A stretch of 27,180 nt of DNA from an uncultured Streptomycetaceae bacterium (GTDB taxonomy: Bacteria > Pseudomonadota > Gammaproteobacteria > Burkholderiales > SG8-41): NCBI GenBank assembly GCA_964593735.1, contig CAZQJF010000001.1, positions 1 through 27,180 on the forward strand, given 5' to 3'. The notes beneath the pieces were generated by a model, which had not been told where the DNA came from, did not search any database, and saw only the letters and a list, made by a program, of their open reading frames with translations. The position numbers and the translations under genes are program-made. Position 1 is the first letter of the stretch, and the number at the start of each line of letters is the position of its first letter. Positions 1-26,742 of this stretch are shown piece after piece.

Positions 1-3
1 CAA

Positions 4-25
4 CCCCTCTCCCGGAGGAGAGGGG
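4..25. repeat. REP-like GC-rich hairpin at the window end (CCCCTCTCC-cgga-GGAGAGGGG); mirror at 27156-27177
   Basis: Perfect 9-bp stem with a 4-nt loop. It resembles the CCCTCTCCC…GGGAGAGGG extragenic palindromes common in proteobacteria, so the contig may have ended at a dispersed repeat. Confidence 0.55.
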
Positions 26-66
26 AGCGTCGAGCGAGACCGGATTGTCATCCGGGTTCGTAATAT

Positions 67-225
67 TCAATAAGGACGCGACTTGCGGCGCGACGGCGGT
101 GACGCGGAGCGCAACCGCCTGAACAACACCGGCGCTCGGCAGCGCAGGCGCCGGTAGTTGCTCTTGGCCCGGCAGATCCAAAGCGGATCGCCGGTCAACG
201 ACTCGACCAGGTTGCGAAACTTCAT
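67..225 (-). CDS. Putative small basic protein, 52 aa (MKFRNLVESLTGDPLWICRAKSNYRRLRCRAPVLFRRLRSASPPSRRKSRPY)
   Basis: Read by hand; it is below the ORF-track cutoff. It has an ATG with a purine-rich AGGGGGG just upstream and lies downstream of a sigma54-type promoter. No homology recognised. Confidence 0.35.
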   Translation of the reverse strand: MKFRNLVESLTGDPLWICRAKSNYRRLRCRAPVLFRRLRSASPPSRRKSRPY

Positions 226-304
226 GGGCCCCCCTGTTTTTATGCTTGCGTGGCACCGCGCACGGTTTCACCTCGCAGTACGCGTGACCGCGGCTCACCC
301 CATT

Positions 305-321
305 AGCAATCCGCATGCCCA
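305..321 (-). promoter_or_regulatory. sigma54 (RpoN) -24/-12 promoter, TGGGCATGCGGATTGCT
   Basis: GG-N10-GC spacing is exact, with GGCATG at -24 and TTGCT at -12, close to the consensus TGGCACG-N4-TTGCW. An IHF site lies just upstream. Confidence 0.65.
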
Positions 322-338
322 TCGAGAGTAGTGATGGA

Positions 339-351
339 AATCAGTAGATTA
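339..351. promoter_or_regulatory. IHF binding site AATCAGTAGATTA
   Basis: Exact match to WATCAR-N4-TTR, in an AT-rich patch between the sigma54 promoter and upstream palindromes, which is the classic position. Confidence 0.6.
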
Positions 352-385
352 AGACGCGGGTGACAGTTGTCGCGACCGCGTTTGC

Positions 386-401
386 GTTGCCGATCGGCGA
401 C
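386..401. promoter_or_regulatory. Candidate enhancer (bEBP-binding) palindrome GTTGCCGATCGGCGAC
   Basis: 16-bp palindrome with one mismatched pair, about 65-80 bp upstream of the -24 element and beyond the IHF site. A related GTTG…CGAC element lies at 366-376. Confidence 0.35.
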
Positions 402-438
402 GTATTTTTTGGACTGCTGTCCGTACCGCCACATAAAA

Positions 439-1101
439 TCAGTGGCCTGGCATAGATGAGGATCTGCGCGCGTCGCGCCTGATCCAGAACTTCAGCAGTC
501 TCAACAATTGCTTAGGAGTGCCATAGTTGAAGCGCCATTCGCACTCCTTGAGAAACAGGTGAAAGTGCTGCCGCGGCACACCGTTGTATCTTCTCAAATG
601 CCGCTTGGCCTGGTTCCAGAAATTCTCGGTGCTGCTGATGTTCGCGCGGCCGCTGGTGAGGTGCGCTCGGCGCGGCACCCGTTGATGGCGCAAGTCGGAA
701 ACATCGAGCGCAAGGCGCGCATCCGGCGATTCGGCGTAGATGATCGAATCGGGACGAACCCTGGGCTTCTGCATCTGCGGGCCTGTGTGGCGCGGGTCCG
801 CAACCATTACGGTGAGGACCTTGTCGCCGCGTCTGACCAGCGCGAACACCGGGATTGCAGGCGCGCCATCATCACGTGCAGCCAACTCGCTGGCGTCGTC
901 GACGTCGATCTCGCCCGCGAGCGCGTTCTCGCTTTCCAGACGCTGCGCGATGATCTCGCGTACCTTGTGATAGAACAGCCTCGCCGTGTTGCGATTGACC
1001 TGGACCAGCTCGGCTGCAGTGCGCGCCGGCGTCCCGGCCACGAAATGCTCCAGCAAGCGCCGCGTCTGTTCGTCGGACAGCCTGGAGCGCCGCACTCTCA
1101 T
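439..1101 (-). CDS. IS1595-family (IS1016 group) transposase-derived protein with a degenerate catalytic core, 220 aa
   Basis: The N-terminus (RLSDEQ…FVAGTPARTAAELVQVNRNTA) and C-terminus (ENFWNQAKRHLRRYNGVPRQHFHLFLKECEWRFN) closely match IS1016 transposases as I recall them. The central motifs have diverged. Confidence 0.85.
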   Translation of the reverse strand: MRVRRSRLSDEQTRRLLEHFVAGTPARTAAELVQVNRNTARLFYHKVREIIAQRLESENALAGEIDVDDASELAARDDGAPAIPVFALVRRGDKVLTVMVADPRHTGPQMQKPRVRPDSIIYAESPDARLALDVSDLRHQRVPRRAHLTSGRANISSTENFWNQAKRHLRRYNGVPRQHFHLFLKECEWRFNYGTPKQLLRLLKFWIRRDARRSSSMPGH

Positions 1102-1138
1102 GCGTCACCCGGTGTGCGCATGCTGTCTATGCCAGGCC
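444..1138 (-). mobile_element. IS1016-group insertion sequence or remnant, 695 bp, with 13-bp terminal inverted repeats GGCCTGGCATAGA
   Basis: ggcctggcataga at 444-456 and its reverse complement tctatgccaggcc at 1126-1138 bracket the transposase ORF. The size is typical of the IS1016 group (~0.7 kb). No target-site duplication is seen (flanks aaatcagt / ggacgaag). Confidence 0.65.
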
Positions 1139-1540
1139 GGACGAAGAGGGCAGTGTCTCCAGTCAGCGACATTTTGTAGTGGTCTAACCGCAATCTGTCG
1201 TTGAAGCGGTGAAAGTTGTAGTCGCCCCACGGCTTTTTCCCCTTGCGCGGCATCGACTGGCAGGACCGATACCCTGATAAAGGTGAAGTTTGTCGCCGTG
1301 CAGAGACGTCCCTGAAAATTCGCGGCCGCAAACTGTGGTTGGCCCGTGACAGCCCCGCAGGGAGAGTCGATCGGCCGGGCGCTCGACGGGCGACCAATCG
1401 ATCGCTGGCGTTCGCGCCACCTCTGGGGTGGCAGCGTTGGAGCGTATCGGCAGACGGGCATAGCGACTCACTGAATAAACGAAAGTGGACGCCAGCCTAA
1501 CAATCCCAGTTGTGCATTTGATCGCGTCCTTACTAGTCGG

Positions 1541-1562
1541 AATGGACTGCAATGGACTGCAA
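1541..1562. repeat. Tandem 10-bp direct repeat AATGGACTGC x2 (+AA) in the divergent intergenic region
   Basis: Read directly: aatggactgc aatggactgc aa. Confidence 0.8.
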
Positions 1563-1773
1563 CGGCGGGGATAGCAGTAAGCGTTGTGCCAAAAGTCTGC
1601 TTTTCCACCAGGGATCAGCCGGCGGCTGGCAGGCAGTAGTCCGGTCGGCCCATATTCGATCGGCGCCCGCGGCCCCTCTGCTTCATCCAGCGCGCCTACC
1701 TTCGCATCACGCACCGCCGCCGGTCGAGCTTTCGGGAAACAGGTGGCCTGGTTTCAGCCGTTCAGGAGGCACC

Positions 1774-2340
1774 ATGAAACTGCTGTTCAAGCTGTTGCTC
1801 ATCGTGATCGCGTCTGTGGGAGCGACGGGCTATTACGCTCGCGCCCCGATAGGCGAATCAAATACACGCCCCCACGCGCGTGCGCCGCGCCTGGCGCAAG
1901 CGCCGGCGTTGACGCCCGCGTTGACACCCGCGCTGACACTGAGGGCGCTGCCAGCCCTGGAATCGCACACGCCCGTATATATCGCCAGTTTTCCGGCCGG
2001 AGCGGAAAACGGCCTGGTGTCCGGCCCTGCGGCCAGCCTCTTGCTCGGCGGCGACGCCACCATCGAGGCGATGGAGCCCGGCGCACTCATCCCGGCCGGA
2101 CCGGGTGGCTTTCTACGGGCCGGCTCGATCGCGTCGAAGGACGAAACCATCCCCGGTATCCCGGCCACGGCGATGGCAGCCTTGCATTCCGTGCGCGTCC
2201 CGGCCGTGGCTGATGGATCCGCGGATCTCTCTGTCCCGGAGCACACGCCATCCGAACCTTCCGGCTGGACGTTGTTGCTGTCCAGTTTCCTGGTCGTCGG
2301 GTTCATCGCGCGGCGTAGATCGCGTCTGGTCACGGGCTGA
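1774..2340 (+). CDS. Secreted protein with a variant PEP-CTERM sorting signal, 188 aa
   Basis: AGGAGG RBS at 1764-1769 supports the ATG at 1774 rather than the track start at 1552. It has a hydrophobic N-terminal signal/anchor (MKLLFKLLLIVIASVGA) and a low-complexity Pro/Ala body. The C-terminus VPEHTPSEPSGWTLLLSSFLVVGFIARRR is a PEP-like motif, then a TM helix, then an Arg cluster. Confidence 0.75.
   Translation: MKLLFKLLLIVIASVGATGYYARAPIGESNTRPHARAPRLAQAPALTPALTPALTLRALPALESHTPVYIASFPAGAENGLVSGPAASLLLGGDATIEAMEPGALIPAGPGGFLRAGSIASKDETIPGIPATAMAALHSVRVPAVADGSADLSVPEHTPSEPSGWTLLLSSFLVVGFIARRRSRLVTG
1903..1938 (+). repeat. In-frame 12-bp x3 tandem repeat encoding (PALT)3
   Basis: ccggcgttgacg / cccgcgttgaca / cccgcgctgaca. 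Confidence 0.8.
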
Positions 2341-2354
2341 TCCGGACGGGCCGG

Positions 2355-2383
2355 CCGCCGGCTGGCAAATTGCCAGCCGGCGG
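2355..2383 (+). terminator. Strong hairpin downstream of the PEP-CTERM gene (possible terminator or mRNA-stabilising stem)
   Basis: ccgccggctggcaa-a-ttgccagccggcgg has 14-bp perfect arms and starts 14 bp after the stop. The following U tract is weak. Confidence 0.5.
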
Positions 2384-2588
2384 ATCGGTTCTCGCTGCTT
2401 TTCCGGTAGCGGCCATGTCCGAGTAGTCCGTTTGGACCACAGCGTGACATCAGCTAAGCACGAATGGCGGAGCTAATCTGCCCCCAATCCCTGCCGCGAG
2501 GCCGGTTGACCGCGATACAGAGACCTACCAGTACACACATAGAGAAAATACAGAGACCGCCGGACCTGACAACTGAATGGAGAACGCC

Positions 2589-3434
2589 ATGGACCAGCAA
2601 TTCTCAGCGCAACTGCTTCCGTCACTGACCACCGTCCGCGCGGCGCGATGGCTTGCCGTCTTGGTCGGGTTCTTGATTGCGCTATCCGCCGCACAAAGCC
2701 TGGCCCAATCCCGCGAGTCCCTGGGCGCCGGGGACACCCTGCGCATCACCGTCTTCCAGAACCCGGATCTCACGACCGAGGCGCGCATCTCCGAGCGCGG
2801 CACGGTCCTGTTTCCGCTGGTGGGCGAAATCAATCTCAACGGGCAGACGCCCACGGGGGCGGCGACCCGGATCGCGGACGCGCTGAAACAGGGAAACTTC
2901 ATGAAGGATCCCCAGGTCAGCGTGGCGGTGCTGACGGTGCGCAGCCGGCAGGTCTCCGTGCTCGGCCACGTGGTTCGGCCCGGGCGCTACCCGCTCGACG
3001 AAGTCACCACGAGCATCACGGACCTTCTGGCGCTGGCCGGCGGCATCGCTCCCACGGGAGACGAGGTCGTCACCGCGGTGGTCACGCGCGAGGGCAAGGC
3101 CACGAAAGCGGAAATCGACGTGGCCGGGATGTACCGCAGCGGCGACATGAAGTCCAACTTTCAGGTGCAGGCGGGCGACACGATTTTCGTGCAGCGCGCG
3201 CCCGTCTTCTACATCTACGGCGAGGTCACCCGCTCGGGTTCCTACCGGCTCGAGCCCAACATGGCCGTGGTGCAGGCGCTCTCGCTGGGCGGCGGCCTGA
3301 CCCCCCGCGGCACGGAACGCGGTCTCCTCATCCACCGGCGCGGAGCGGACGGGACGCTGCAGAAGATCGGCGCGCGCCTTTCTGATCCGGTGCGGGCCGA
3401 TGACGTGATCTATGTCAGGGAAAGCCTGTTCTAG
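2589..3434 (+). CDS. epsE: Polysaccharide export protein EpsE (Wza/OPX family, SLBB domains), 281 aa
   Basis: LGAGDTLRITVFQNPDL…ISERGTVLFPLVGE is a Poly_export motif, followed by VSVLGHVVRPGRYPL and FYIYGEVTRSGSYRL SLBB repeats and the C-terminus DDVIYVRESLF. GGAG at 2579-2582 favours the ATG at 2589 over 2577. No lipobox Cys. Confidence 0.9.
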   Translation: MDQQFSAQLLPSLTTVRAARWLAVLVGFLIALSAAQSLAQSRESLGAGDTLRITVFQNPDLTTEARISERGTVLFPLVGEINLNGQTPTGAATRIADALKQGNFMKDPQVSVAVLTVRSRQVSVLGHVVRPGRYPLDEVTTSITDLLALAGGIAPTGDEVVTAVVTREGKATKAEIDVAGMYRSGDMKSNFQVQAGDTIFVQRAPVFYIYGEVTRSGSYRLEPNMAVVQALSLGGGLTPRGTERGLLIHRRGADGTLQKIGARLSDPVRADDVIYVRESLF

Positions 3435-3478
3435 ACGCCGCGCGCGAGAGCCTATCAGCGACTGACCCGGAGCACGAC

Positions 3479-4918
3479 ATGCATCTCCAACTTCTTCTTT
3501 CTACGCTGCGGGCACGCTTCGGCGTGTTCGCCCTGGTGGTGTGCGCCACCGTTCTTGCCGCCACCGTGGTGAGCCTCCTGCTGCCGAAAACCTACAAGGC
3601 GACGACCTCGCTGCTGGTCGACGCCAGGGACGCGCAGTCGCTGAGCGGCGCCGGCGCAGGGACCCCCCAGTTTTCCCATCCGCTGGAAAAAGTGACCTAC
3701 ATGCAAACCCAGATGGACATCATCGGCAGCGAGACGGTCGCGCGCAAGGTGGTGCAGGATCTGAGACTCGCGGAGAACCCGGCGGCGCAAGCGGAACACG
3801 CGAAGAGCGGCCGCGCCGGCTCGATCGAGGACAACCTTGCGAGGGACCTGCTCCTGGCGCTCAAGGTGGAGGGCTCGCAGAGCAGCATCATCCAGGTCAC
3901 CTTTACGGCCGGAGACCCGCGCTTCGCGGCGGCTGTGGCGAACGCTTTTGCCAAGGCCTACGCCGACACGGCGCTGGAGATGCGAACGGCACCGACGCGG
4001 CAGGCGGCGGTCTGGTTCGACGAGCAGCTGAAGGCCCTGCGGGAGAACTTGCAGGAAGCGCAGAGCACGCTCGCGGAGTACCAGAGAAAGAAGGGGATCG
4101 TCGCAGCCGACGAGCGCCTCGACGTCGAGAGCGTCCGGCTGGGAGAGCTTTCGACGCAACTGGCGCGAGCGCAGGACACCACGCTCGGCTGGCAGGCACG
4201 CGGTCAGCAGGCGCGCGAGGCGCTTGCGCGGGGACAGTCGCCCGAGAGGCTTGCGGACGTGCAGGCGAATCCGCTCGTGCAGACCCTGAAGACCGACATC
4301 CTGCGCGGGGAAGCCAAGCTGAAGGAGCTCGCTTCGCAGTACGGGACCAACTACCCGACCTACCAGCGGCAGCTCTCCGAGAACCAGAGCCTGCGTGAAA
4401 AGCTCGACGGCGAGGTGGCGAAGATCGCGGCCGGCTTCGATAACTCGAGCCGCCAGAGCCGCCAGCAGGAAGCGGGGCTGGCCGGGGCGCTGGCGGCACA
4501 GCGCGATCGCCTGCTGCAACTCAGGGAATCCCGGAGCGAGCTGGTGGTGCTCACGCGCAACGCGGAATCCGCGCAGCGGACCTACGAAACCGCGCTGCAG
4601 CGCGCCGTCCTCAACAAAGTTGAAAGCAGCGCCCGCGGGTCGAACGTTGCGGTGCTCGGTCCCGCGGTCGAACCCCCCGCTCCGGCCCGTCCCAAGGTCG
4701 GTCTCAACGTGGCCCTGTCGGTGGTCGTGGGGATCATCCTGGGCCTCGGGACCGTCATGTTGATGGAGTTGCTCGACCGCCGGGTGCGCTCGCATAACGA
4801 CCTGGTCACCGAACCGAACGTGCCGCTGCTCGCCGTGCTCAACAAGTGGGACCCGGCGGCCGGCCACCGACTCCCGGGCTGGTCGGGAAGCCAGCGCACA
4901 TTGCCCAAACCAACCTGA
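3479..4918 (+). CDS. epsF: Chain-length determinant EpsF (Wzc periplasmic/PCP module), 479 aa
   Basis: N-terminal TM helix followed by LPKTYKATTSLLVD, a long coiled-coil region, and PAVEPPAPARPK plus a C-terminal TM helix then ELLDRRVRS. It sits between epsE and a kinase-like gene. Confidence 0.88.
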   Translation: MHLQLLLSTLRARFGVFALVVCATVLAATVVSLLLPKTYKATTSLLVDARDAQSLSGAGAGTPQFSHPLEKVTYMQTQMDIIGSETVARKVVQDLRLAENPAAQAEHAKSGRAGSIEDNLARDLLLALKVEGSQSSIIQVTFTAGDPRFAAAVANAFAKAYADTALEMRTAPTRQAAVWFDEQLKALRENLQEAQSTLAEYQRKKGIVAADERLDVESVRLGELSTQLARAQDTTLGWQARGQQAREALARGQSPERLADVQANPLVQTLKTDILRGEAKLKELASQYGTNYPTYQRQLSENQSLREKLDGEVAKIAAGFDNSSRQSRQQEAGLAGALAAQRDRLLQLRESRSELVVLTRNAESAQRTYETALQRAVLNKVESSARGSNVAVLGPAVEPPAPARPKVGLNVALSVVVGIILGLGTVMLMELLDRRVRSHNDLVTEPNVPLLAVLNKWDPAAGHRLPGWSGSQRTLPKPT

Positions 4919-4950
4919 GCCAACCTGAGCCAACCTGAGCCGAGCTGAGG
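4910..4950. repeat. 10-bp tandem repeat CAACCTGAGC x3 plus a degenerate fourth unit (CGAGCTGAGG) at the epsF/epsG junction
   Basis: Read directly at 4911-4950. The first unit holds the epsF stop and the fourth holds the epsG RBS (GAGG). Confidence 0.9.
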
Positions 4951-4958
4951 ATACCGAG

Positions 4959-5852
4959 ATGAACGCACCCGAGAATGTCGTGATGCTGGAGGCTGCGGGA
5001 CGCGCCGTTGCGCCGCGGCGCGATCGAGCGATCGGCAGCATACTGGTCGAAGAAGGCAAGCTGGATCCCGCCGGCGTCGAGCAGGTCATGGAACTGCAGC
5101 GGGACAAGGGTCTGAAGTTCGGGGAAGCCGCGATGCGCCTCGGGCTCATCACGGAACGCGACCTCAACTACGCCGTCGCGAAGCAATACGACCTCCCGCG
5201 CCTGCTGGCGGACAACGATGGCGCCACCTCCGAGCTGGTCGTGGCGCACGCTCCGTTCCACCCCCGCGCCGAGGAGATACGCTCGCTGCGGACTCAGTTG
5301 CTTATCCGCTGGTCGAACACCGGGATGGACCGCGGGGTGCTGGCGGTCGTGAGCCCGGGCAGCGGTGAAGGTCGCAGCTACGTCGCAGCCAACCTCGCGG
5401 TCGCCTTCGCGCAACTGGGCGAGCGCACTCTGCTGATAGACGCGGACCTGCGCCGGCCGCGCCAGCACCGGATCTTCGAGGTTTCGGACCGTATCGGCCT
5501 CTCGACGGTGCTCTCGGGACGGGCGGGCGCGGAGGCGGCGGTGCAGGTGTCGGAGTTCGGACGCCTTGCGCTGTTGCCTGCCGGCCCGCTGCCTCCCAAT
5601 CCGCAGGAGCTGCTGTCGCGTCTTGCGCTCGCCGGTTTCCTGAAGGAAGCCCGCGCCGCGTTCGACGTCGTCCTCGTCGATACGCCGCCGGCGAAATTCT
5701 ACGCGGATGCGCAGATCGTGGGTTTCCGGGCAGGCAGCGTAATGGTCGTCGCGCGCAAGGATCACACGCGCATCGCCGATACGAACAGCGTCATCCAGGA
5801 AATGGGCAACTCCGGCACCCGCGTGGTCGGCACGGTGTTCAACGCATATTGA
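4959..5852 (+). CDS. epsG: Chain-length determinant tyrosine-kinase-like protein EpsG (BY-kinase/P-loop), with an N-terminal MshEN-like module, 297 aa
   Basis: EEIRSLRTQL, Walker A variant PGSGEGRS, Walker A' LLIDADLRRP, Walker B VVLVDTPP, C-terminus VVGTVFN. Confidence 0.88.
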   Translation: MNAPENVVMLEAAGRAVAPRRDRAIGSILVEEGKLDPAGVEQVMELQRDKGLKFGEAAMRLGLITERDLNYAVAKQYDLPRLLADNDGATSELVVAHAPFHPRAEEIRSLRTQLLIRWSNTGMDRGVLAVVSPGSGEGRSYVAANLAVAFAQLGERTLLIDADLRRPRQHRIFEVSDRIGLSTVLSGRAGAEAAVQVSEFGRLALLPAGPLPPNPQELLSRLALAGFLKEARAAFDVVLVDTPPAKFYADAQIVGFRAGSVMVVARKDHTRIADTNSVIQEMGNSGTRVVGTVFNAY

Positions 5853-5864
5853 CCCACACGAGTT

Positions 5865-5900
5865 CAGGCCGGCGGCGGGCAGCATGGCGCCGCCGGCCTG
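5865..5900. other. Intra-operon GC-rich hairpin (13-bp perfect stem, 10-nt loop), no U tract
   Basis: caggccggcggcg … cgccgccggcctg between epsG and the polymerase-like gene. Confidence 0.6.
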
Positions 5901-5988
5901 GGGAAATGCGAGAGACGCAGGTCCCGCGGTCAGGCGCGATGGGCTCCCGGCCGGCCAGCCGAACGGTAATACGACCCTGGTATAGACG

Positions 5989-7530
5989 ATGACCACGATC
6001 TCATCCAATGCGCCGCCAACCGCGGCAGGAACCTTCGCCCGGCTGCTTCGCGGATGGTCGAATCCGCGGGGCGGCCCGGCGGACGTGCGCGACCTGGCCT
6101 ACGTGGCCGACCACAATCTCCGAGCCAACCTCGCCCTGCTCGCCGGGATCGCTCTGCTCGGCGTGCTCGGCGGCGCCGCGGTCGCCGTCACCGGATGGAA
6201 CGCGCTCGTCCTCGTCATCTCGCTGATCGGCTGCGCGTTCATATTCCTCGACTTCAGAGTCGGCGTGGTGCTGCTCATGCTGTTGGTGCCGCTCTCGAGA
6301 AGCTACCTGTTCCCGCACGCGATGTTCGGCGTCACCGGCGCCAATCCGCTGAACCTGCTGGTCGCCGTAACACTGGGCTCGTACCTGCTCCAGGCGCTGA
6401 CGGGGGGCGGCCTGCGCCGGTTCCTACCTGCTCCGTTGGTGTGGCTGTATCTCGCGCCCATCGTGATCGCCGGCTTCATCGGCTCGCGTCACGTCGGCGA
6501 GATCGCGCCCGCCTTCGAATTGACCACGGGGCTCAAGTTGTACTCGAGCGCGGCCGGATACCTGCAGGAGACCGTGTTGAAGCCGCTCATGATCGTGGTG
6601 TCTGCGGTCCTGATCGGGGCCGCGGTCGCAAGATCGCAGAAGCCGGAGAGGTTCCTCGTGCCGATGCTGGCGTCGGTCTGGGCGATGAGTTTGATGGTCA
6701 TCGTGTTCGTGGCGCTTTCGGGCGTCGGGTTGAGCACGCTCGCGAGCAGTACCCAGCGCGAGTTCCTCTCCGCGCTGGGGCTGCACGCCAACGATCTCGG
6801 CCGCCTCTACACGGTCGCCTACGCGCTGCTGCTCTTTACCTGGGCCGGATCGAAGGAACGGGGCTTGAGAATCATGCTGCTCGCTTCGATGGGCGTGGTG
6901 GTGGTGGCATTGATGCTGACGTTCTCACGCAGCGCGTTCCTGGGGTTCATCTTTGTGAATCTGCTGTTCCTCCTCTGGCGCTTCAATGCGAAGACCTTCT
7001 TCCTGTTCGTGGCGCTCATTGCCGTGGGTGCGTTGCTGGTGCCGGGGGCGGTCTACGAGCGGCTGTCGTACGGAATGGGCGAGGGAGCGGATGCGATCTC
7101 CGCCGGGCGCGTCGAAGGGCTCTGGCTGCCCCTCCTTCCCGAAATCTTGAAGAGCCCGATCTGGGGCAGCGGCCTCGGCTCGATACTCTGGTCCGAAGCG
7201 ATGCGGCAAGGCGGAGGAAACACCGTCTTGCTGGTCACCCACCCGCACAGCGCGTACCTGGAGGCAGCGCTCGACATGGGCATCCTCGGCCTGATCCTGC
7301 TTTGCGCCTACTTCGCACACGTCTGGCGGGGCTTTCGCGCGCTGATCGCGACTCCGGGATTGAGTCCCACCCTGCGCGGCTTCTACCAGGGAGCGATTGC
7401 CGGGTTGCTGGTGGGCGTGTTGATCACCGGCCTCGCGGACGGCAGCCTGACGCCGCGGCCGGAGCACGCCTTCCTGTGGTTCGCCATCGGCATGATGTAC
7501 GGCCAGACTTCCCGGAAGCAGGCAGCCTGA
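5989..7530 (+). CDS. O-antigen ligase / Wzy polymerase-family membrane protein, 513 aa
   Basis: Many TM segments with the motifs HANDLG, LTFSRSAFLG, PIWGSGLGS and HPHSAYLE…MGILGL, typical of the Wzy_C/O-antigen ligase family. Confidence 0.82.
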   Translation: MTTISSNAPPTAAGTFARLLRGWSNPRGGPADVRDLAYVADHNLRANLALLAGIALLGVLGGAAVAVTGWNALVLVISLIGCAFIFLDFRVGVVLLMLLVPLSRSYLFPHAMFGVTGANPLNLLVAVTLGSYLLQALTGGGLRRFLPAPLVWLYLAPIVIAGFIGSRHVGEIAPAFELTTGLKLYSSAAGYLQETVLKPLMIVVSAVLIGAAVARSQKPERFLVPMLASVWAMSLMVIVFVALSGVGLSTLASSTQREFLSALGLHANDLGRLYTVAYALLLFTWAGSKERGLRIMLLASMGVVVVALMLTFSRSAFLGFIFVNLLFLLWRFNAKTFFLFVALIAVGALLVPGAVYERLSYGMGEGADAISAGRVEGLWLPLLPEILKSPIWGSGLGSILWSEAMRQGGGNTVLLVTHPHSAYLEAALDMGILGLILLCAYFAHVWRGFRALIATPGLSPTLRGFYQGAIAGLLVGVLITGLADGSLTPRPEHAFLWFAIGMMYGQTSRKQAA

Positions 7531-7576
7531 TGACTGCTGCACGCATGTTCGGCTCCCACCGGTCGGCACGGGTCCC

Positions 7577-9100
7577 GTGACCAACAACACAACTGAGGCA
7601 ACCGACGCCGGGGTCGTACCGCCCAACGTACAGCGACGGTTGGGCCAGCGCGCGCTGTCGCTGGGGGCCGCGAACGCCTTCGACTACGCCATCCAGTTCC
7701 TCCTGCCCGTGGTGCTGGTGCGCTGCCTCGATGCCGAAGCCTTCGGGCAGTACCGTCTGCTGTGGCTGGTGGTGGGGACGGTCATGGCGTTCCTGCCGCT
7801 GGCGATGGAAGCGAGCCTGTATTACTACCTGCCCCGGTCGGATGCTACGGGTAAACGGCTCTACATCAACCAGACGCTGGTATTTTTTGCGGCCGCCGGC
7901 CTGGTCGCCGCGTGGGCGGTCAGCGCCTGGAACCCCTGGTTGCCGGCGAAGCTGCAGGGGTTCTCGGACCCCGAGATCATCGTGCCCGCGTTCATGGCGC
8001 TATGGGTGGTGTCCTCGGTGCTCGATCTGCTGCCCACCATCGAGGAGCGGGTGGTCTGGCAGGCGAAGGCGACGGTCGGACTGGCGCTGGTGCGCGCCGT
8101 TGCAATGTCCCTGGTTGCCTGGCTCACGGGGGAACTCACGCCCGTGCTGCTGACGCTGCTCGCGTTCGTGTTGTTCAAGTCCGCGCTGCTGTTGCGCTAC
8201 GTCGCGGTCCATCACGGCTTGCGCGGACCGGTGCTGCGCCGTAAAACGTTCGCGGAGCAGATGACCTTCGTGGCCCCGTTCTGGGTGGGCGGCGTGCTCT
8301 ACGGATTGCGGACGCAGGCGGACCAGTGGGTGGCGGCGACGCTGTTTTCCCTGGGCATGTTCGCGTCGTTCTCGATCGCCGCGGTACTCGGCCCGCTGGT
8401 GAACCTGTGCCGGGTGTCGGTCAACAACGCCTTCCTGCCGAGCATGAGCCGGCTGCAGGCCGCGGGCAGCATAACCGGCATGCTCGAGCTGAACAGCCGC
8501 GCCAACGTGATGGTCGGAGCGCTCGTCTTCCCGCTGCTCGCCTTCACGTTCGTGTTTGCCGAGGAGATCGTCACGATCGTCTATACCGACGCCTACGTCG
8601 CCGCGGCGCCGGTCATGCGCCTGTATATCGTCGGCTTCGCAGCGCTGGTGGTCGAGCTCGCCAGCATTACGTTGCTCCTGCGCCAGGGCCCGTTCATGTT
8701 ATGGGTAAACCTCGCTGCGCTGGTCGTGTCCTTCGCCATGAACTGGTATGGGGCGCAGTACTTCGGCCTGCCGGGAGCGGCGGCAGGCACCGTGTTCGCG
8801 ATCTGCGGCGATCGCGTGATCACCCTGTGGCGCATCTCGCGCCTCACCGGTGTTGCGATACGTTCGTTGCAGGACTGGCGCACGCTCGGCGTGCTGGCGG
8901 TCATGTCCGCGCTGGCCGCGGCGCTGGCGTGGGGCATAGTGGGCAGCTATCTCGCCGCGAGCGGGCCGGTCACCCGCGTAGCCGCAGGCGGGCTGGTGAT
9001 CGCGGTCGCCTACGTTGCGCTGCGCGCGTGCGCGGGCATGGACCGGGAGCTGCTGCGCGAGCTCCGCAATTACCGGCAGGGCATGGGAGCGAAGTCGTGA
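7577..9100 (+). CDS. wzx: Polysaccharide flippase (Wzx, MOP superfamily), 507 aa, GTG start
   Basis: About 12-14 hydrophobic segments, with LLPVVLVRCLDAEAFGQYRL in the first loop, FASFSIA, and LVFPLLAFTFVFAEEIVTIVYTDAY…AAPVMR. It lies within the EPS operon. Confidence 0.82.
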   Translation: MTNNTTEATDAGVVPPNVQRRLGQRALSLGAANAFDYAIQFLLPVVLVRCLDAEAFGQYRLLWLVVGTVMAFLPLAMEASLYYYLPRSDATGKRLYINQTLVFFAAAGLVAAWAVSAWNPWLPAKLQGFSDPEIIVPAFMALWVVSSVLDLLPTIEERVVWQAKATVGLALVRAVAMSLVAWLTGELTPVLLTLLAFVLFKSALLLRYVAVHHGLRGPVLRRKTFAEQMTFVAPFWVGGVLYGLRTQADQWVAATLFSLGMFASFSIAAVLGPLVNLCRVSVNNAFLPSMSRLQAAGSITGMLELNSRANVMVGALVFPLLAFTFVFAEEIVTIVYTDAYVAAAPVMRLYIVGFAALVVELASITLLLRQGPFMLWVNLAALVVSFAMNWYGAQYFGLPGAAAGTVFAICGDRVITLWRISRLTGVAIRSLQDWRTLGVLAVMSALAAALAWGIVGSYLAASGPVTRVAAGGLVIAVAYVALRACAGMDRELLRELRNYRQGMGAKS

Positions 9101-10251
9101 TGCGGCTGCTTTTCGTCACCACTTCGTTGATCTACGGCGGCGCCGAGCGCCACGCGGTCACCCTCATGAATCGCATGACGGAGCGCGGACACGAGACGCA
9201 CGCCGTCCACGTCAAGGACGTGAAACCCGACCAGGCCGATCGCATCCGGCTGGGTGTAGCCGGAACCCTGCGCTGTCTCAATGCGGCGCGCTATTTCGAC
9301 CGGCGCGCGGTGGCCGATTTCGCCGACCACCTGACGCGTATCCGCCCCTCGGTGATCGTCGCGGCGAATCCCTATGCGCTCATGTACGCCTGGCTGGCGC
9401 TGCGCCTTGCCCGCACCGGCACGCGCACGGCGCTCGTCGTGACCTATCACTCGACCCGGCTCCTGAACGTCAAGGAACGCCTGCAGATGATGCTCTATCG
9501 CCTGTTCTTCTGGACGGCGGATTTCTCGGTCTTCGTCTGCGAAAAGCAGCGGCGCTACTGGCGCCGCCGCGGGGTATTTTCGCGCCGCAGCGAAGTGATC
9601 TATAACGGCGTGGATACGGACGAGTACTGCGACACGACGGGCCCCGAGAAACGCGCCGCCCTGCGCAGCGCGCTCGGTTTTGCCGAAACGGACTACGTAA
9701 TCGGCATTTCGGCCTGGTTGCGCCCGGAGAAGAACCACCTGCAGCTGGTGGATGCCGTTGCGGCGCTGCGCAAGAAGGGCATTCCGGCCCGGGCGCTGAT
9801 GATCGGCGAGGGCGAGATGCGCCAGGCGATCGAGGCGCGCGCGCGCGCGCTCGAGGTCGAAAACCACGTCGTGATCACGGGACACCAGGAAGACGTCCGC
9901 CCTTGCATCGCCGCGTCGGACGCCATGGTGCTGTGCAGTTTCACCGAAGCGTTCTCGCTGGCGGCGATCGAGGCCATGGCGCTGTGCAAGCCGGTGGTCC
10001 ATTCCGACGTCGGCGGCGCCGCCGAGATGATCCGCTGCGCGCGGGAGGGATTTCTCTTTCCCGTGGGTGACACCGGCGCGCTCGTCGACCGGCTTGCCGC
10101 GCTTGCCGATCGCGGGCTGGCGGCCCGTCTGGGCGCCCAGGCACGCGTGGCCGTCGAAACGCGTTTTTCGGAGCGCACGATGGTCGACCGCTACGAAAGC
10201 CTGCTGCTGGAGCTTTCCGGACGTACCAGCCCGTCACCCGCCGCCGTTTAG
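9100..10251 (+). CDS. Glycosyltransferase family 4 (GT-B, retaining), 383 aa
   Basis: The ATG overlaps the wzx stop (TGATG at 9098-9102). Motifs GGAERH, VIYNGVD, LRPEKNH, EX7E (EAFSLAAIE) and EAMALCKPVV. The track's 8326 start is a shadow extension. Confidence 0.9.
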   Translation: MRLLFVTTSLIYGGAERHAVTLMNRMTERGHETHAVHVKDVKPDQADRIRLGVAGTLRCLNAARYFDRRAVADFADHLTRIRPSVIVAANPYALMYAWLALRLARTGTRTALVVTYHSTRLLNVKERLQMMLYRLFFWTADFSVFVCEKQRRYWRRRGVFSRRSEVIYNGVDTDEYCDTTGPEKRAALRSALGFAETDYVIGISAWLRPEKNHLQLVDAVAALRKKGIPARALMIGEGEMRQAIEARARALEVENHVVITGHQEDVRPCIAASDAMVLCSFTEAFSLAAIEAMALCKPVVHSDVGGAAEMIRCAREGFLFPVGDTGALVDRLAALADRGLAARLGAQARVAVETRFSERTMVDRYESLLLELSGRTSPSPAAV

Positions 10252-10298
10252 CCGTCAATTGTGACGGCGCCGCTCTGCCATGGTCCATTTGGACCATG
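10251..10298. promoter_or_regulatory. Two short palindromes in the GT4/propeller intergenic region (GCCGTCA-attg-TGACGGC; CATGGTCC-attt-GGACCATG)
   Basis: Read directly at 10251-10268 and 10279-10298. Function unknown (operators or RNA stems). Confidence 0.4.
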
Positions 10299-10364
10299 CC
10301 TCCCGCAATTCCCCTACACAGTGAGTTCCGACAATGGCCTAACGCCGGAATCGAAGGTCGAACG

Positions 10365-12200
10365 ATGCTTGAAAATGCGCCATCCCCGGAACCTGTCAGC
10401 GTAGCGACCCCGTCGCGGGGAGAGCCTGGCGAGCGCACGTTCCTGCCTTCGGAAACACCGGCGAGCGATGGCAGACTTCGAGTCGGCGTGTTCGCCGATT
10501 CGCCGCTGCAGCCGCGCTGGATCGTCGAGGCGTTGGCCAGGGTGGCGGACTCCGATTTCGCGCTTGTCGTGGCGGTCGCTGAGAGGCGTTCGACGCCACC
10601 GGCGCTGCCCTGGCTGTGGCGCGTGTACAGCCGCCTCGACCACCGCGTTTTCGGCTCGGCGCCGGATCCGTCGGAGGGCGTGGCGCTGAAGGACCGCGTG
10701 GCGCACCTCCAGTTCATGTCCCTGCCGGAACACGACGCGGCGGACACGGTCATCGCGGCGTGGCGCGCGCGGATCATGGCCCTGGATCTCGATGTCGCGT
10801 TTGCGGCGGGCAACGTGGCCGATTCCCTGCTGGACGGCGTAGCGAAGTACGGCGTGTGGCGCTACTGCTTCGGTGAAGAGTGCGCATCGCTCGAAGTGGC
10901 GGCAGGCTTTCGCGAAGCGGCCGGCGGCGCCCCGGTGACGGCGTCGGCGCTGAGGGTCTGCCGCGGCGGCGAGACCGACGACCGGCTCGTTTACCGCTCC
11001 TGGTCGCGCACGTATCCGCTCTCGGTGGCCCGGAACCGCAGCAACTTCCTGCACAAGTCTGCGCAGTTCGCGGGCAGGGCGCTGCGGCAGCTGCATCGCT
11101 CGCCCAGCGAGTGGCTGCAGCAGTGGGAGTCCCTGCCGCGCGCCCCCGCGAGCCCGGCCCCCGGGATGCCCGGCACCGGCGAGACCGTGCGCGCCGTGGC
11201 GCAGCTTGCCGGGAGGCAGGCGCAGCGCGGGCTCCAGAAGCTGCTCTACGTGGATCAGTGGTTTCTCGCCTACCGGTTCGGGCCGCAGGAGCGCTGGCAG
11301 GGCGACCTGCGGGACTACACGTGTCTCGTGCCTCCCACGGATCGCATCTGGGCCGATCCGTTCCCGATCGAGCGCAACGGCAGACACTTCATTTTCTTCG
11401 AAGAGGTGATACTCGCGTCGGGCAAGGGTCACATTGCCGTCGTGGAGGTCGATCGCAAGGGGGTGTGTTCCCCGCCGGTGCGCGTGCTGGAGCGCGATTA
11501 CCACCTCTCGTATCCCAGTCTCATCGAGCACGAAGGGCAGCTCTTCATGGTTCCCGAGACCGGCGACAACCGGACCGTCGAGCTTTACCGCTGCATCGAA
11601 TTTCCCGGCCGCTGGCGCCTGGAAAAAGTGCTGCTGCGCGACGCCTGGTTCACGGATGCGACCCTGCACCGCGACGGCGACAAGTGGTGGATGTTCGTCA
11701 ACATCGGCCTGGAAGGGGCCGAGGCCCACGACGAGCTGCACCTTTATTTCGCCGACGATCTCATGGGTGAGTGGCGGCCTCATCGCGGCAATCCGGTCAA
11801 GTCCGACGCCCGGTGCGCTCGCCCGGCGGGCCGGCCCTATCTGCGCGACGGGGTGCTCTACCGCCCGGCCCAGATCTGCGCGCCGCTCTACGGCAGCGGT
11901 ATTTCGATCAACCGGGTGCTTCATGTGTCGCCGCAGGCTTATGTCGAGCGGGAGGAAGAGCGCATCCTGCCGCCGGGTCCCGCTGATCAGGGACTGCTGG
12001 GAATACACACCGTCAATCGCGCCGGCGACCTGAGCGTGGTGGACGTTTTCATGCGCCGCAGGCGGCTGGGAGCGCGCGGCCCGCGCGCCATCAGCCTAGC
12101 AGCCTGTCGGACTCGATGCTCCGACCGGCTGCTAAATGCAAAACCGCCCGCAGACTTGCAACAGTGCGGGGGTGAAAGGACCTGTTTTTGCGATTACTAA
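10365..12200 (+). CDS. Degenerate formyltransferase-like N-domain plus a GINT1-N-like (GH32/43-type five-bladed beta-propeller) C-domain, ~611 aa
   Basis: The C-half has the propeller motifs WADPFP, FIFFEE, YHLSYP, FMVPET, RPAG, RPAQ and IHT. The N-half has DLDV…AKYGVWRY…LVYRSWSRT, resembling formyltransferase-fold domains in this family. GAAGG at 10353-10357 favours the ATG at 10365 over 10296. Confidence 0.7.
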   Translation: MLENAPSPEPVSVATPSRGEPGERTFLPSETPASDGRLRVGVFADSPLQPRWIVEALARVADSDFALVVAVAERRSTPPALPWLWRVYSRLDHRVFGSAPDPSEGVALKDRVAHLQFMSLPEHDAADTVIAAWRARIMALDLDVAFAAGNVADSLLDGVAKYGVWRYCFGEECASLEVAAGFREAAGGAPVTASALRVCRGGETDDRLVYRSWSRTYPLSVARNRSNFLHKSAQFAGRALRQLHRSPSEWLQQWESLPRAPASPAPGMPGTGETVRAVAQLAGRQAQRGLQKLLYVDQWFLAYRFGPQERWQGDLRDYTCLVPPTDRIWADPFPIERNGRHFIFFEEVILASGKGHIAVVEVDRKGVCSPPVRVLERDYHLSYPSLIEHEGQLFMVPETGDNRTVELYRCIEFPGRWRLEKVLLRDAWFTDATLHRDGDKWWMFVNIGLEGAEAHDELHLYFADDLMGEWRPHRGNPVKSDARCARPAGRPYLRDGVLYRPAQICAPLYGSGISINRVLHVSPQAYVEREEERILPPGPADQGLLGIHTVNRAGDLSVVDVFMRRRRLGARGPRAISLAACRTRCSDRLLNAKPPADLQQCGGERTCFCDY

Positions 12201-12305
12201 GGACACAAGCGGGGCCGAATTCACGTATTTCGAATCAGATTGCGCTGTTTTCCTGCGGGCGGTTTTGCCTAAGGAGTGTGTCGGGACCAAGTCCGACACA
12301 CTCCT
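12097..12305. repeat. Symmetric element: hairpin (12097-12134), 16-bp IR (12138-12153), 99-bp spacer, 16-bp IR (12253-12268), hairpin (12272-12305)
   Basis: gcaaaaccgcccgcag / ctgcgggcggttttgc are perfect inverted repeats. The flanking hairpins tagcagcc-t-gtcgga…tccgac-c-ggctgcta and aggagtgtgtcgg…ccgacacactcct are each 3 bp from the IRs. Confidence 0.8.
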
Positions 12306-12395
12306 GGGCGATGCCGATCCGGGTCTTGCCGCGCAGGTAGCGTGAACCGGTGAGCCGGAAGACATGCGCGGGAACCCAAAAAGGAGCGAACGACG

Positions 12396-13496
12396 ATGAG
12401 TAACTATGAAGAGGTGCAGGAGCAATTGCGCGGCCGGTCCCGCACCTGGGTGGTGACCGGCGCCGCGGGATTCATCGGCTCCCACCTGGTGGAAACCCTG
12501 CTCGGGCTCGATCAGCGGGTGATCGCGCTGGACAATTTTTCCACCGGCAAACGGGGCAACCTGCTGCACATGAAAGAGGCAGTGACCGAAGCCCAGTGGC
12601 GGAATTTTCGTTTCATCGAGGGCGACATCCGTTCGGTGGATGTTTGCCGCCGGGTTTGCCGCCGGGCGGATTTCGTGCTGCACCACGCGGCGCTCGGCAG
12701 CGTGCCGCAATCCATCGAGCAGCCGATCGGCGCGCATGAAAACAATATCACGGGGTTTCTCAACATGCTGGTGGCTGCGCGCGACGCCGGCGTAACGCGG
12801 TTCGTTTACGCGAGCTCCAGTGCGACCTACGGCGACCATCCCGGCCTGCCGCAGGTCGAGTCCGAAATCGGCCGGCCGTTGTCGCCGTACGGGCTTACCA
12901 AATTCGTGAACGAGCTTTACGCGGAGATCTTCGCGAGCTGCTACGGGTTCGACTCGATCGGGCTGCGGTATTTCAACGTGTTCGGCCCGCGCCAGGACCC
13001 GGCCGGCGCCTACGCTGCGGTGATCCCGAAGTGGGCCGCCGCCATGATCGGCAACGAGCCCGTGTTCATCAACGGCGACGGCGAAACGGTGCGCGACTTC
13101 TGCTATGTCGGCAACGTGGTTCAGGCGAATTTGCTGGCGGCCGTGGCCGAGAATCCCGCCGCCGTAAACCAGGTCTACAACATCGCCCTGGGCGGCAGGA
13201 CGACTCTCAACGAGCTCTTCGAGATGATTCGCTCGCTGCTCGAGCCGCGCTGTCCCTGGCTGCGCGACGCGCGCCCGGTCTATCGCGATTTTCGCACCGG
13301 CGATGTGCGCCTCTCGCAGGCCGAAATCGGCAAGGCGCGGCGGCTGCTCGGCTACGAACCGGCATGGCGGGTGAGCGACGGGCTGGCGCGCGCGATCGAC
13401 TGGTACGCGGCAAAGACGCCGGTGCAGCGTTCTCACAACTCCGGGGCGCGGGAGTCGTGGCGGGGAATGAACGGCGCCTTGAGAAGTTATACCTGA
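12396..13496 (+). CDS. NAD-dependent UDP-GlcNAc/GalNAc 4-epimerase (WbpP/TviC-like extended SDR), 366 aa
   Basis: AAGGAG RBS, GAAGFIG Rossmann motif, [26 protein letters not shown] (YxxxK) and [14 protein letters not shown]. Confidence 0.92.
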
Positions 13497-13506
13497 AGGC
13501 TGAAGC

Positions 13507-13590
13507 ATGTCCTCATTCAAATCCGTCTCTCTGCGCGCGGCAGCGGTTCCCGGCGCCGCGGCGAACCCTGCGGTAACCCCCGCGGCGGCC
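13507..13590 (+). pseudogene. Probable 5' end of the next gene (MSSFKSVSLRAAAVPGAAANPAVTPAAA), cut at the fold-back axis
   Basis: The ATG is 10 bp after the epimerase stop, with GAAGG at 13495-13499, and the frame stays open for 28 codons up to the axis. It reads through into mirror sequence and stops at 13668. Mirror copy 13591..13674 (-). Confidence 0.45.
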
Positions 13591-13684
13591 GGCCGCCGCG
13601 GGGGTTACCGCAGGGTTCGCCGCGGCGCCGGGAACCGCTGCCGCGCGCAGAGAGACGGATTTGAATGAGGACATGCTTCAGCCT

Positions 13685-14785
13685 TCAGGTATAACTTCTC
13701 AAGGCGCCGTTCATTCCCCGCCACGACTCCCGCGCCCCGGAGTTGTGAGAACGCTGCACCGGCGTCTTTGCCGCGTACCAGTCGATCGCGCGCGCCAGCC
13801 CGTCGCTCACCCGCCATGCCGGTTCGTAGCCGAGCAGCCGCCGCGCCTTGCCGATTTCGGCCTGCGAGAGGCGCACATCGCCGGTGCGAAAATCGCGATA
13901 GACCGGGCGCGCGTCGCGCAGCCAGGGACAGCGCGGCTCGAGCAGCGAGCGAATCATCTCGAAGAGCTCGTTGAGAGTCGTCCTGCCGCCCAGGGCGATG
14001 TTGTAGACCTGGTTTACGGCGGCGGGATTCTCGGCCACGGCCGCCAGCAAATTCGCCTGAACCACGTTGCCGACATAGCAGAAGTCGCGCACCGTTTCGC
14101 CGTCGCCGTTGATGAACACGGGCTCGTTGCCGATCATGGCGGCGGCCCACTTCGGGATCACCGCAGCGTAGGCGCCGGCCGGGTCCTGGCGCGGGCCGAA
14201 CACGTTGAAATACCGCAGCCCGATCGAGTCGAACCCGTAGCAGCTCGCGAAGATCTCCGCGTAAAGCTCGTTCACGAATTTGGTAAGCCCGTACGGCGAC
14301 AACGGCCGGCCGATTTCGGACTCGACCTGCGGCAGGCCGGGATGGTCGCCGTAGGTCGCACTGGAGCTCGCGTAAACGAACCGCGTTACGCCGGCGTCGC
14401 GCGCAGCCACCAGCATGTTGAGAAACCCCGTGATATTGTTTTCATGCGCGCCGATCGGCTGCTCGATGGATTGCGGCACGCTGCCGAGCGCCGCGTGGTG
14501 CAGCACGAAATCCGCCCGGCGGCAAACCCGGCGGCAAACATCCACCGAACGGATGTCGCCCTCGATGAAACGAAAATTCCGCCACTGGGCTTCGGTCACT
14601 GCCTCTTTCATGTGCAGCAGGTTGCCCCGTTTGCCGGTGGAAAAATTGTCCAGCGCGATCACCCGCTGATCGAGCCCGAGCAGGGTTTCCACCAGGTGGG
14701 AGCCGATGAATCCCGCGGCGCCGGTCACCACCCAGGTGCGGGACCGGCCGCGCAATTGCTCCTGCACCTCTTCATAGTTACTCAT
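13685..14785 (-). CDS. Mirror copy: WbpP-like UDP-GlcNAc 4-epimerase
   Basis: Identical translation to 12396..13496. Confidence 0.9.
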
Positions 14786-19604: not shown

Positions 19605-19650
19605 GGGACCCGTGCCGACCGGTGGGAGCCGAACATGCGTGCAGCAGTCA

Positions 19651-26042: not shown

Positions 26043-26737
26043 GGCCTGGCATAGACAGCATGCGCACACCGGGTGACGCATGAGAGTGCGGCGCTCCAGG
26101 CTGTCCGACGAACAGACGCGGCGCTTGCTGGAGCATTTCGTGGCCGGGACGCCGGCGCGCACTGCAGCCGAGCTGGTCCAGGTCAATCGCAACACGGCGA
26201 GGCTGTTCTATCACAAGGTACGCGAGATCATCGCGCAGCGTCTGGAAAGCGAGAACGCGCTCGCGGGCGAGATCGACGTCGACGACGCCAGCGAGTTGGC
26301 TGCACGTGATGATGGCGCGCCTGCAATCCCGGTGTTCGCGCTGGTCAGACGCGGCGACAAGGTCCTCACCGTAATGGTTGCGGACCCGCGCCACACAGGC
26401 CCGCAGATGCAGAAGCCCAGGGTTCGTCCCGATTCGATCATCTACGCCGAATCGCCGGATGCGCGCCTTGCGCTCGATGTTTCCGACTTGCGCCATCAAC
26501 GGGTGCCGCGCCGAGCGCACCTCACCAGCGGCCGCGCGAACATCAGCAGCACCGAGAATTTCTGGAACCAGGCCAAGCGGCATTTGAGAAGATACAACGG
26601 TGTGCCGCGGCAGCACTTTCACCTGTTTCTCAAGGAGTGCGAATGGCGCTTCAACTATGGCACTCCTAAGCAATTGTTGAGACTGCTGAAGTTCTGGATC
26701 AGGCGCGACGCGCGCAGATCCTCATCTATGCCAGGCC
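26043..26737 (+). mobile_element. Mirror copy: IS1016-group element with 13-bp TIRs
   Basis: Reverse complement of 444..1138. Confidence 0.63.
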
Positions 26738-26742
26738 ACTGA
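26080..26742 (+). CDS. Mirror copy: IS1595-family transposase-derived protein
   Basis: Identical translation to 439..1101. Confidence 0.83.
   Translation: MRVRRSRLSDEQTRRLLEHFVAGTPARTAAELVQVNRNTARLFYHKVREIIAQRLESENALAGEIDVDDASELAARDDGAPAIPVFALVRRGDKVLTVMVADPRHTGPQMQKPRVRPDSIIYAESPDARLALDVSDLRHQRVPRRAHLTSGRANISSTENFWNQAKRHLRRYNGVPRQHFHLFLKECEWRFNYGTPKQLLRLLKFWIRRDARRSSSMPGH

Follow-up and report, generated by a model that had tools for sequence, protein, structure and literature searches.

Transposase derivatives and the IS1016-like gene

Transposase domestication is well documented in eukaryotes, and the few bacterial cases comprise the RAYTs, CRISPR-associated transposases and nuclease-dead TnpB derivatives. 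The stationary P-element genes and KP of Drosophila, Tn5 Inh and IS1 InsA have kept DNA binding and multimerisation, have lost catalysis and repress the parent element, and KP elements retain their end repeats. TldR proteins are nuclease-dead TnpB derivatives that act as repressors and are RNA-guided. Here we describe a transposase-like gene (the query gene) on contig CAZQJF010000001.1 of assembly GCA_964593735.1. The window, that is the whole stretch of DNA analysed, is this entire contig of 27,180 bp, of which only positions 1-13590 are unique sequence. With a probability of roughly 0.6, the gene is a stationary, selected derivative of an IS1016-group element for which catalysis would be dispensable and whose product would bind its own end repeats.

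The canonical IS1016-group elements (ISApl4, ISEc69, IS1016) are, like the element of the window, about 700 bp long with one open reading frame (ORF) of about 215-220 aa, and they share the same helix-turn-helix, the motifs ENFW.QAK and LF.KECE.RFN, and ends of the GGGGCTG.C.TAGA type (PMC12561309). Their published signature is E-DESYFG...VYTD...HINGIENFW.QAK...LF.KECE.RFN, their ends are about 14 bp long (GGGGCTG..C.TAGA), and insertion of IS1016 duplicates 7-9 bp of AT-rich target, usually 8 bp; ISApl4 is present in 39 copies, and canonical relatives are multicopy with 8-bp AT-rich duplications (PMC12561309). The query differs from them in that E-DESYFG, the Gly-rich loop, YTD, RINH and HINGIE are replaced, in that it is single-copy, syntenic, under host-level purifying selection and not bordered by a 7-9-bp duplication, and in that its ORF runs through the right repeat.

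RAYT (TnpA-REP), which is associated with repetitive extragenic palindromes (REP), has been termed the first prokaryotic domesticated transposase (PMC8266576). It resembles the query in being a single-copy, vertically inherited, transposase-derived gene between recognised inverted sequences; however, RAYT is a catalytically active HUH enzyme accompanied by hundreds of REP copies, whereas the query is of the DDE type with a degenerate site and an end motif that is unique in the genome. TldR and the query have in common a transposon-encoded protein recruited, in the case of the query putatively, to a host function, but TldR is unrelated in fold. The P/KP, Tn5 Inh and IS1 InsA proteins are eukaryotic or are products of active elements, whereas the query is a separate chromosomal gene for which repression is only a proposed role. 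Ciliate macronuclear genes with a DDE_Tnp_IS1595/Merlin domain carry the same Pfam domain, but these are eukaryotic and are proposed excisases and not catalysis-dead binders. Full-text literature searches yielded no bacterial IS1016/IS1595 transposase reported as domesticated or as catalytically inactive, and the comparative evidence suggests that the query is a domesticated or repressor-type transposase derivative of this kind.

The gene, the parts of its 220-aa product and the end repeats are as follows.

439..1101, minus strand: intact ORF of 220 aa, ATG at 1101, TGA stop at 439-441
Residues ~10-58 of the product: N-terminal helix-turn-helix
Residues ~61-155 of the product: degenerate catalytic core
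Residues ~156-215 of the product: conserved C-terminal helices, ENFWNQAKRH...LFLKECEWRFN
1126..1138, no strand: left end repeat (IRL, gene-relative), 25-37 bp upstream of the ATG
444..456, no strand: right end repeat (IRR), inside the last ORF codons, perfect complement of IRL

Searches with family models revealed that the product matched NCBIfam transpos_IS1595 (NF033547) with 76.1 bits (cut-off 75) over profile positions 2-214 of 215, and Pfam DDE_Tnp_IS1595 (PF12762) with 37.1 bits (cut-off 27) over profile positions 38-153 only. Identity to canonical IS1016-group members was 40-55%, and the product is a non-canonical IS1016-group (IS1595 family) transposase homologue. Motifs were compared in the best 120 of roughly 6,500 protein homologues and in 80 loci from species genomes. 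Canonical IS1016-group transposases were near-uniform across phyla, with VDE(S/C)YFGG, x-RKGKRGRGAAGK, PVFG, Y(T/S)D, RINH, HINGIENFWNQAKRH and LFLKECEWRFN, a set consistent with the published signature (PMC12561309). In the query, the first catalytic motif is VDDASEL instead of VDESYFG, the basic Gly-rich loop (V/H)RKGKRGRGAAGK is replaced by ARDDGAPA, the second Asp motif Y(T/S)D by YAE, RINH by RVPR and HINGIE by NISSTE, and the helix-turn-helix region and everything from ENFWNQAKRH on are retained. Where active IS1016 carries its catalytic signature, the query has IDVDDASEL, IIYAE and NISSTENFWNQAK, and only ENFW.QAK and LFLKECEWRFN of that signature are kept.

An earlier reading of the DNA, made from the sequence only, had listed these substitutions and had called the DNA-binding ends nearly unchanged; both statements agreed with the comparison with real IS1016-group transposases, and every substitution agreed also with the signature of PMC12561309. 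Its further description likewise held in the sequence: an intact 220-aa ORF, a pair of 13-bp inverted repeats, the lack of a target-site duplication, a stop just outside the repeat (the TGA lies 3-5 bp beyond 444-456), host-like GC-rich codons (G+C content at third codon positions of 0.77, against 0.76-0.89 in the neighbouring genes) and divergence from the PEP-CTERM/eps operon over about 670 bp (672 bp, from the ATG at 1101 to the ATG at 1774). A Foldseek search of the predicted structure against the PDB gave no match at E <= 0.001, and VIA-align of the same structure gave Z about 5 with homeodomain-like helix-turn-helix folds and Z 4.8 with the ISCth4 transposase.

Copy number, orthologues, selection and end repeats

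The comparisons show that both end repeats are conserved and that the gene has kept its position and its open frame under purifying selection. Searches of the source assembly (4.12 Mb, 846 contigs) by DNA, protein and family model found one locus, in an assembly whose fragmentation and completeness of 86% could lead to collapsed repeats being missed. An independent contig of the source run (8,355 bp, depth 12.4) covered window positions 26-8380 with two differences, and the depth summed over all contigs of at least 90% likeness was 12.6-13.9 in the element and 12.4-14 in the flanks. With several copies, such contigs would be interrupted and the depth would be higher; a bridging contig at flank depth speaks for a single copy.

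Metagenome contigs were scanned for the clade-specific peptide TENFWNQAK, and three close relatives, L135, L129 and L132, were found (orthologue DNA of type P0002 for L129/L135 and P0004 for L132). L135 (3,322 bp) was collinear with window 71-2919 at 77% nucleotide identity, and its order matched that of the window: a small ORF with a sigma-54-like promoter, the insertion-sequence-like gene, a long intergenic region, the PEP-CTERM-like ORF and EpsE. L129 is a shorter contig of the L135 type with flanks common with the window, and L132 shares the gene and its downstream flank comprising a hairpin, a -24/-12 element and the beginning of the small ORF. The gene is intact on each of the three contigs, with products of 221-225 aa that show the degenerate motifs of the query.

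Measured against L135, silent divergence (dS) amounted to 0.36 in EpsE, 0.29 in the PEP-CTERM-like ORF and 0.27 in the small ORF, and to 0.26-0.46 in the termini of the transposase-like gene; as these termini match the adjacent genes, the gene and those around it diverged in step. The ratio of nonsynonymous to synonymous divergence (dN/dS, Nei-Gojobori) of the gene at this locus was 0.13-0.23 overall, with whole-gene values of 0.22 against L135 and 0.13 against L132. By domain it was 0.03-0.07 in the N terminus, 0.20-0.28 in the core and 0.04-0.18 in the C terminus at this locus, and 0.03-0.06, 0.26-0.28 and 0.12-0.16, respectively, between query and L135, the pair for which the domain-level values are tabulated (the L132 value refers to the whole gene). 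The core is thus relaxed yet still constrained. The lengths of the orthologous ORFs differed by whole-codon gaps in the variable loop only, and neutral simulation on this GC-rich ORF left a stop-free frame in 4% of runs at the distance of L135 and in 0.4% at that of L132. The sequence-only reading had named multiple near-identical copies, or a lack of syntenic orthologues together with dN/dS near 1, as the findings that would speak against it; the genome held no second copy, the orthologues L135/L129 and L132 were syntenic, and dN/dS was well below 1.

Silent divergence from L135 was uneven along the gene, with about 0.26 in the N-terminal 60 codons (window 922-1101), about 0.34-0.46 in the C terminus and 0.8-0.9 in the core (window 637-921), against 0.27-0.36 in the neighbouring genes; either the core changes faster even at silent sites or it is partly misaligned.

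The degenerate syndrome is seen in about half of the 120 best homologues. The first catalytic Asp column holds D, E, G, A or H in the branch and the loci (D, E, G or A in the best 120 homologues), and the second holds D, E, A, S, N or G across homologues. In the non-canonical homologues the basic loop shows lineage-specific replacements and HINGIE becomes x-I-D-S-I-E or N-I-S-S-T-E, and in L097/L099 the catalytic Glu is also replaced, by Q or A. A tree constructed from 187 proteins separated canonical from non-canonical sequences by one branch with 99% local support (FastTree). When the motif columns were omitted the split stayed, with 97% local support, and the copies of one sister locus (locus C, below) fell on the canonical side, which indicates that the syndrome arose at least twice.

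Two sister loci were found in addition to that of the window (locus A). At locus B, a member of 56-58% identity lies between EamA transporter and GHL15-like genes in three genomes from the genus of the window (G012, G001 and G032). Locus C, in G118/G167 and G125/G300 from two other families of the order, lies beside a di-haem oxidoreductase gene. Both loci were collinear between species at 71-79% identity, with exactly one match per genome and intact ORFs of 213-221 aa, and a single non-canonical copy was present in all carrier genomes (8/8). Their dN/dS was 0.19-0.45 (termini 0.09-0.26, core 0.29-0.66). His and Asn take the place of the two Asp residues in G118/G167, and G125/G300 have lost the Glu as well, to Ala or Gln.

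Canonical relatives, on the other hand, were multicopy, with seven copies in G328 and at least five in one alphaproteobacterial genome; the canonical loci L023 and L038 carry 8-bp target duplications, and decayed canonical relics in G037 have kept the motifs and contain 4-5 stop codons. Among the matches listed by the search of species-genome contigs only canonical elements, of at most 52% identity, were present. The class-level genome search gave matches in 3 of 400 genomes, and carriers of stationary or canonical members were few among the 401 order-level and 401 class-level genomes searched. No close relative was found on 72,556 plasmids, where the best match had 45% identity and only canonical types were seen. 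A look for RNA runs containing the locus found none, and no cultivated carrier came to light.

Analysis of the ends revealed that the inverted repeat GGCCTGGCATAGA at 444-456 and 1126-1138 is complementary at 13/13 positions and bounds an element of 695 bp. The left repeat agrees with the canonical IS1016 end GGGGCTGGCATAGA, a consensus from multicopy elements, at 12/14 positions, and the DNA coding for the C-terminal residues SSSMPGH is itself the end repeat. The 13-mer GGCCTGGCATAGA had no other occurrence in the 4.12-Mb assembly (chance expectation 0.17), in which no partners resembling miniature inverted-repeat transposable elements (MITEs) were found. The flanks, ...AAAATCAGT on one side of the element and GGACGAAGAG on the other, differ, so that no target-site duplication is present. 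The repeat core CTGGCATAGA was identical in the query, L135 and L132, and the surrounding 50 bp were about 62% identical to L135. At ten stationary loci both repeats were kept, with 11-14 of the 14 positions of canonical GGGGCTGGCATAGA, the left repeat starting 37-51 bp ahead of the ATG and the right repeat placed at the stop or beyond it. The coding sequence does not include the right repeat at loci B and C, where conservation of this repeat is therefore not a by-product of the protein sequence.

Beyond the left repeat a further conserved module was found.

1154..1182, minus strand: module outside the element, imperfect palindrome CCACTACAAAA-TGTCGCTGACTGGAGACA, 15 bp upstream of the left repeat

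By-eye alignment of the ten loci showed the module, of the form CTAC-N5/6-(T)GTCGC-N6/7-CGACA followed by 15 bp and then the repeat, in the window, L007, L008, L009, L132 and L135; it thus recurs with equal spacing at sister locus B in three other species. As the module is common to loci A and B and lies outside the left repeat, the conserved unit exceeds the classical element. The module is a candidate operator or promoter of the gene unit. Locus C has instead GCGACATCC(G/A)TGCC at 25-26 bp from the repeat, with a palindrome of 11-bp arms in L097.

Mobility and function of the gene

We propose that an IS1016-group element was inserted between the small ORF of sigma-54 type and the eps operon in an ancestor of the lineage, that the element would then have ceased to move, and that its gene was probably retained by selection as a single-copy chromosomal gene. 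Its product would lack transposition activity and act as a sequence-specific binder of the IS1016 end through the unchanged helix-turn-helix; we infer binding to the end repeats from repeat conservation. Binding at the left repeat, just upstream of the start codon, would allow autoregulation. With its retained end specificity and C-terminal helices the protein might also sit on the ends of canonical IS1016 elements entering the cell or form mixed complexes with their transposase, and such occupied ends or poisoned complexes would repress canonical transposition in the manner of a dominant-negative immunity factor, as with the P-element KP repressors and Tn5 Inh. That the protein blocks incoming canonical IS1016 elements is proposed on the ground that it agrees with canonical transposases in its DNA-binding and C-terminal parts, and we put it forward tentatively, at odds clearly below even. 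The retained ends could also permit occasional mobilisation in trans, which would explain the sister copies at different loci. Equally tentative is the general form of the idea, in which IS1016-group elements would have given rise, at least twice, to widespread single-copy, vertically inherited, catalysis-dead repressor neogenes that keep their end repeats and confer host and self immunity against canonical IS1016, a bacterial counterpart of the KP/P-neogene repressors.

Several observations weigh against a stationary and catalysis-dispensable gene. Orthology at this locus is documented by three metagenome contigs only, from two lineages. A homologue of any kind was present in 4 of 32 same-genus genomes, and since most genomes of the genus are without it the gene is dispensable. 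The query is acidic at or near all three catalytic positions (VDD, YAE, ENFW), so that residual activity of this copy is possible, and the predicted structures of the query and of canonical P0120 were indistinguishable, both being of low confidence at motif 1. The non-canonical sequences form an apparently monophyletic group and occur at different loci in one genus, which implies movement after degeneration or, in part, long-branch attraction; such attraction among fast-evolving sequences may contribute partly to the grouping. Finally, a locus C orthologue from a third species of genus g42 (L102, G216:C12:887145-887796) is frameshifted in the variable loop. Both halves of L102 are otherwise well conserved, and it is either a real pseudogene or an assembly error.

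Some of these points are those expected of a divergent IS1016 subgroup that is still mobile and transposes rarely, either through D66/D68/D69, E124 and E159 or by trans-mobilisation through canonical transposases. Both end repeats are conserved and nearly canonical, the length of 695 bp is within the IS1016 range (PMC12561309), related non-canonical genes occur at different loci in one genus, many homologues lie on metagenome contigs of roughly 1 kb, and acidic residues are found near the three catalytic positions. We nevertheless consider continued mobility unlikely, since all eight genomes with a non-canonical member hold a single copy, target duplications are lacking, a contig passes through the element at flank depth, the plasmids gave only distant, canonical matches, and the catalytic positions are unconserved in the branch, with replacements by A, G, H, N and Q. 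Purifying selection was, moreover, measured in comparisons of single copies that were inherited vertically, a setting in which element-level selection cannot operate. Another view is that the gene is a dead insertion sequence in neutral decay whose frame is open by chance, with which the lost catalytic motifs, the missing target duplication, the patchy distribution in the genus and the frameshifted orthologue at another locus would agree. Neutral decay is very improbable, because dN/dS is 0.13-0.23 with intact orthologous ORFs that differ by whole codons, because ten copies are intact where 0.4-4% per lineage would be expected to stay open, because the end repeats were conserved within intergenic DNA of about 62% identity, and because true relics, as in G037, contain 4-5 stop codons.

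For a role in local regulation, the features downstream of the gene have to be considered.

305-320, minus strand: sigma-54-like -24/-12 element, GGGCATGCGGATTGCT, kept in L135 and L132
67-225, minus strand: Arg-rich ORF of 52 aa, dN/dS 0.24 against L135
383-404: palindrome/hairpin, kept in L135 and L132

The sequence-only reading had favoured exaptation as a DNA-binding protein regulating the neighbouring exopolysaccharide (EPS) or small-ORF promoters. The gene does lie between two conserved regulatory regions, the arrangement, the 305-320 element and the 383-404 hairpin are kept in L135 and L132, and the right repeat is about 40 bp from the hairpin, as would suit control of transcription of either the neighbouring eps/PEP-CTERM operon or the small ORF of sigma-54 type. 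However, the sister stationary copies are flanked by unrelated genes, namely EamA/GHL15, or the di-haem oxidoreductase with MFS-acyltransferase or nitroreductase, and EPS regulation is unsupported for this reason. Same-genus genomes retain EpsE and the PEP-CTERM-like gene without the transposase-like gene, synteny in the EpsE region that they share ending at the PEP-CTERM-like gene, and the end-repeat motif is unique in the genome, so that there is no regulon. A local regulator is thus quite unlikely. Of the earlier exaptation view, the single copy, the syntenic orthologues and the selection stood; the EPS link did not, nor did selection on DNA binding only, as the core, with dN/dS of 0.20-0.28, is still constrained.

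Proteins of this kind are named "IS1595 family transposase" by NCBI, and genome annotation consequently counts their genes as mobile elements. If the members of this branch really are stationary, selected DNA binders, insertion-sequence counts in environmental genomes include non-mobile genes; the branch would also offer a tractable DDE transposase turned binder with its recognition sites still attached, and a candidate system, amenable to testing, in which a protein confers immunity to a family of insertion sequences.

Neighbouring genes, REP-like palindromes and source assembly

On the plus strand, the 672-bp intergenic region is followed by the PEP-CTERM-like ORF and by EpsE, EpsF and EpsG, each of the three above its NCBIfam cut-off, and then by a Wzy-like protein, a flippase, glycosyltransferases and an epimerase. 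The transposase-like gene should not be taken as a sign of mobility or recent acquisition of the eps locus. The ORF preceding EpsE (1774-2340, 188 aa) has a signal-peptide-like start and a tail ...PSEPSGWTLLLSSFLVVGFIARRRSR resembling a PEP-CTERM anchor, and was detected by no Pfam or NCBIfam model; it is fast-evolving, with 72% identity and dN/dS of 0.6 against L135. An empty site was sought in same-genus genomes and none was found, similarity ending at the PEP-CTERM-like gene. A sigma-54 consensus scan gave a number of matches not above chance. The 383-404 palindrome was read by a simple scan as a plus-strand terminator-like hairpin with a T run, and its stem in the query pairs fully only on the plus strand, via a G-U pair.

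An association of the REP/RAYT type was considered and rejected, as the end motif is unique in the genome and palindrome counts do not track the gene: G001, with the gene, had 1 REP-like match per strand, and G006, without it, had 79. Y1_Tnp genes were present in 24 of 33 genus genomes (the RAYT/REP counts for the genus include the unpublished genome G011), and no Y1 transposase (RAYT) gene was found in the 86%-complete source assembly. In the source genome (G000) two REP-like families were seen, one of about 79 copies (...AGGAGTGTGTCGG-N8-CCGACACACTCCT...) and one of about 66 copies (...TAGCAGCCTGTCGGA-N10-TCCGACAGGCTGCTA...). One REP copy lies at about 12267-12310 of the window, between GINT1_N-like and epimerase genes, and accounts for the very high depth of bin 12101-12584. 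A search of Rfam with positions 1-13600 matched no family.

The window is identical to its own reverse complement with 0 mismatches, positions 13591-27180 mirroring 1-13590, and this palindromic structure is an assembly artefact. No other contig of the 846 in the assembly is palindromic, and none is longer. In the source permafrost metagenome an independent contig ended at 13605, 15 nt beyond the palindrome centre, which matches the look of an assembly hairpin, and no independent contig of the source run crossed the centre by more than 15 nt. The mirrored half carries the following feature.

26080..26742, plus strand: mirror image of the transposase ORF, in the artefactual half of the palindromic contig

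An apparent second copy of the gene in the window (100% match, 26001-26781) was accordingly rejected, since the contig is a perfect palindrome. At the contig end, window positions 1-31 form a GC-rich hairpin, CCCCTCTCC-GGAGGAGAGGGG, whose depth was raised in the source run, and one contig of that run connects position 31 with 12094; a dispersed repeat probably halted the assembly at 1-31.

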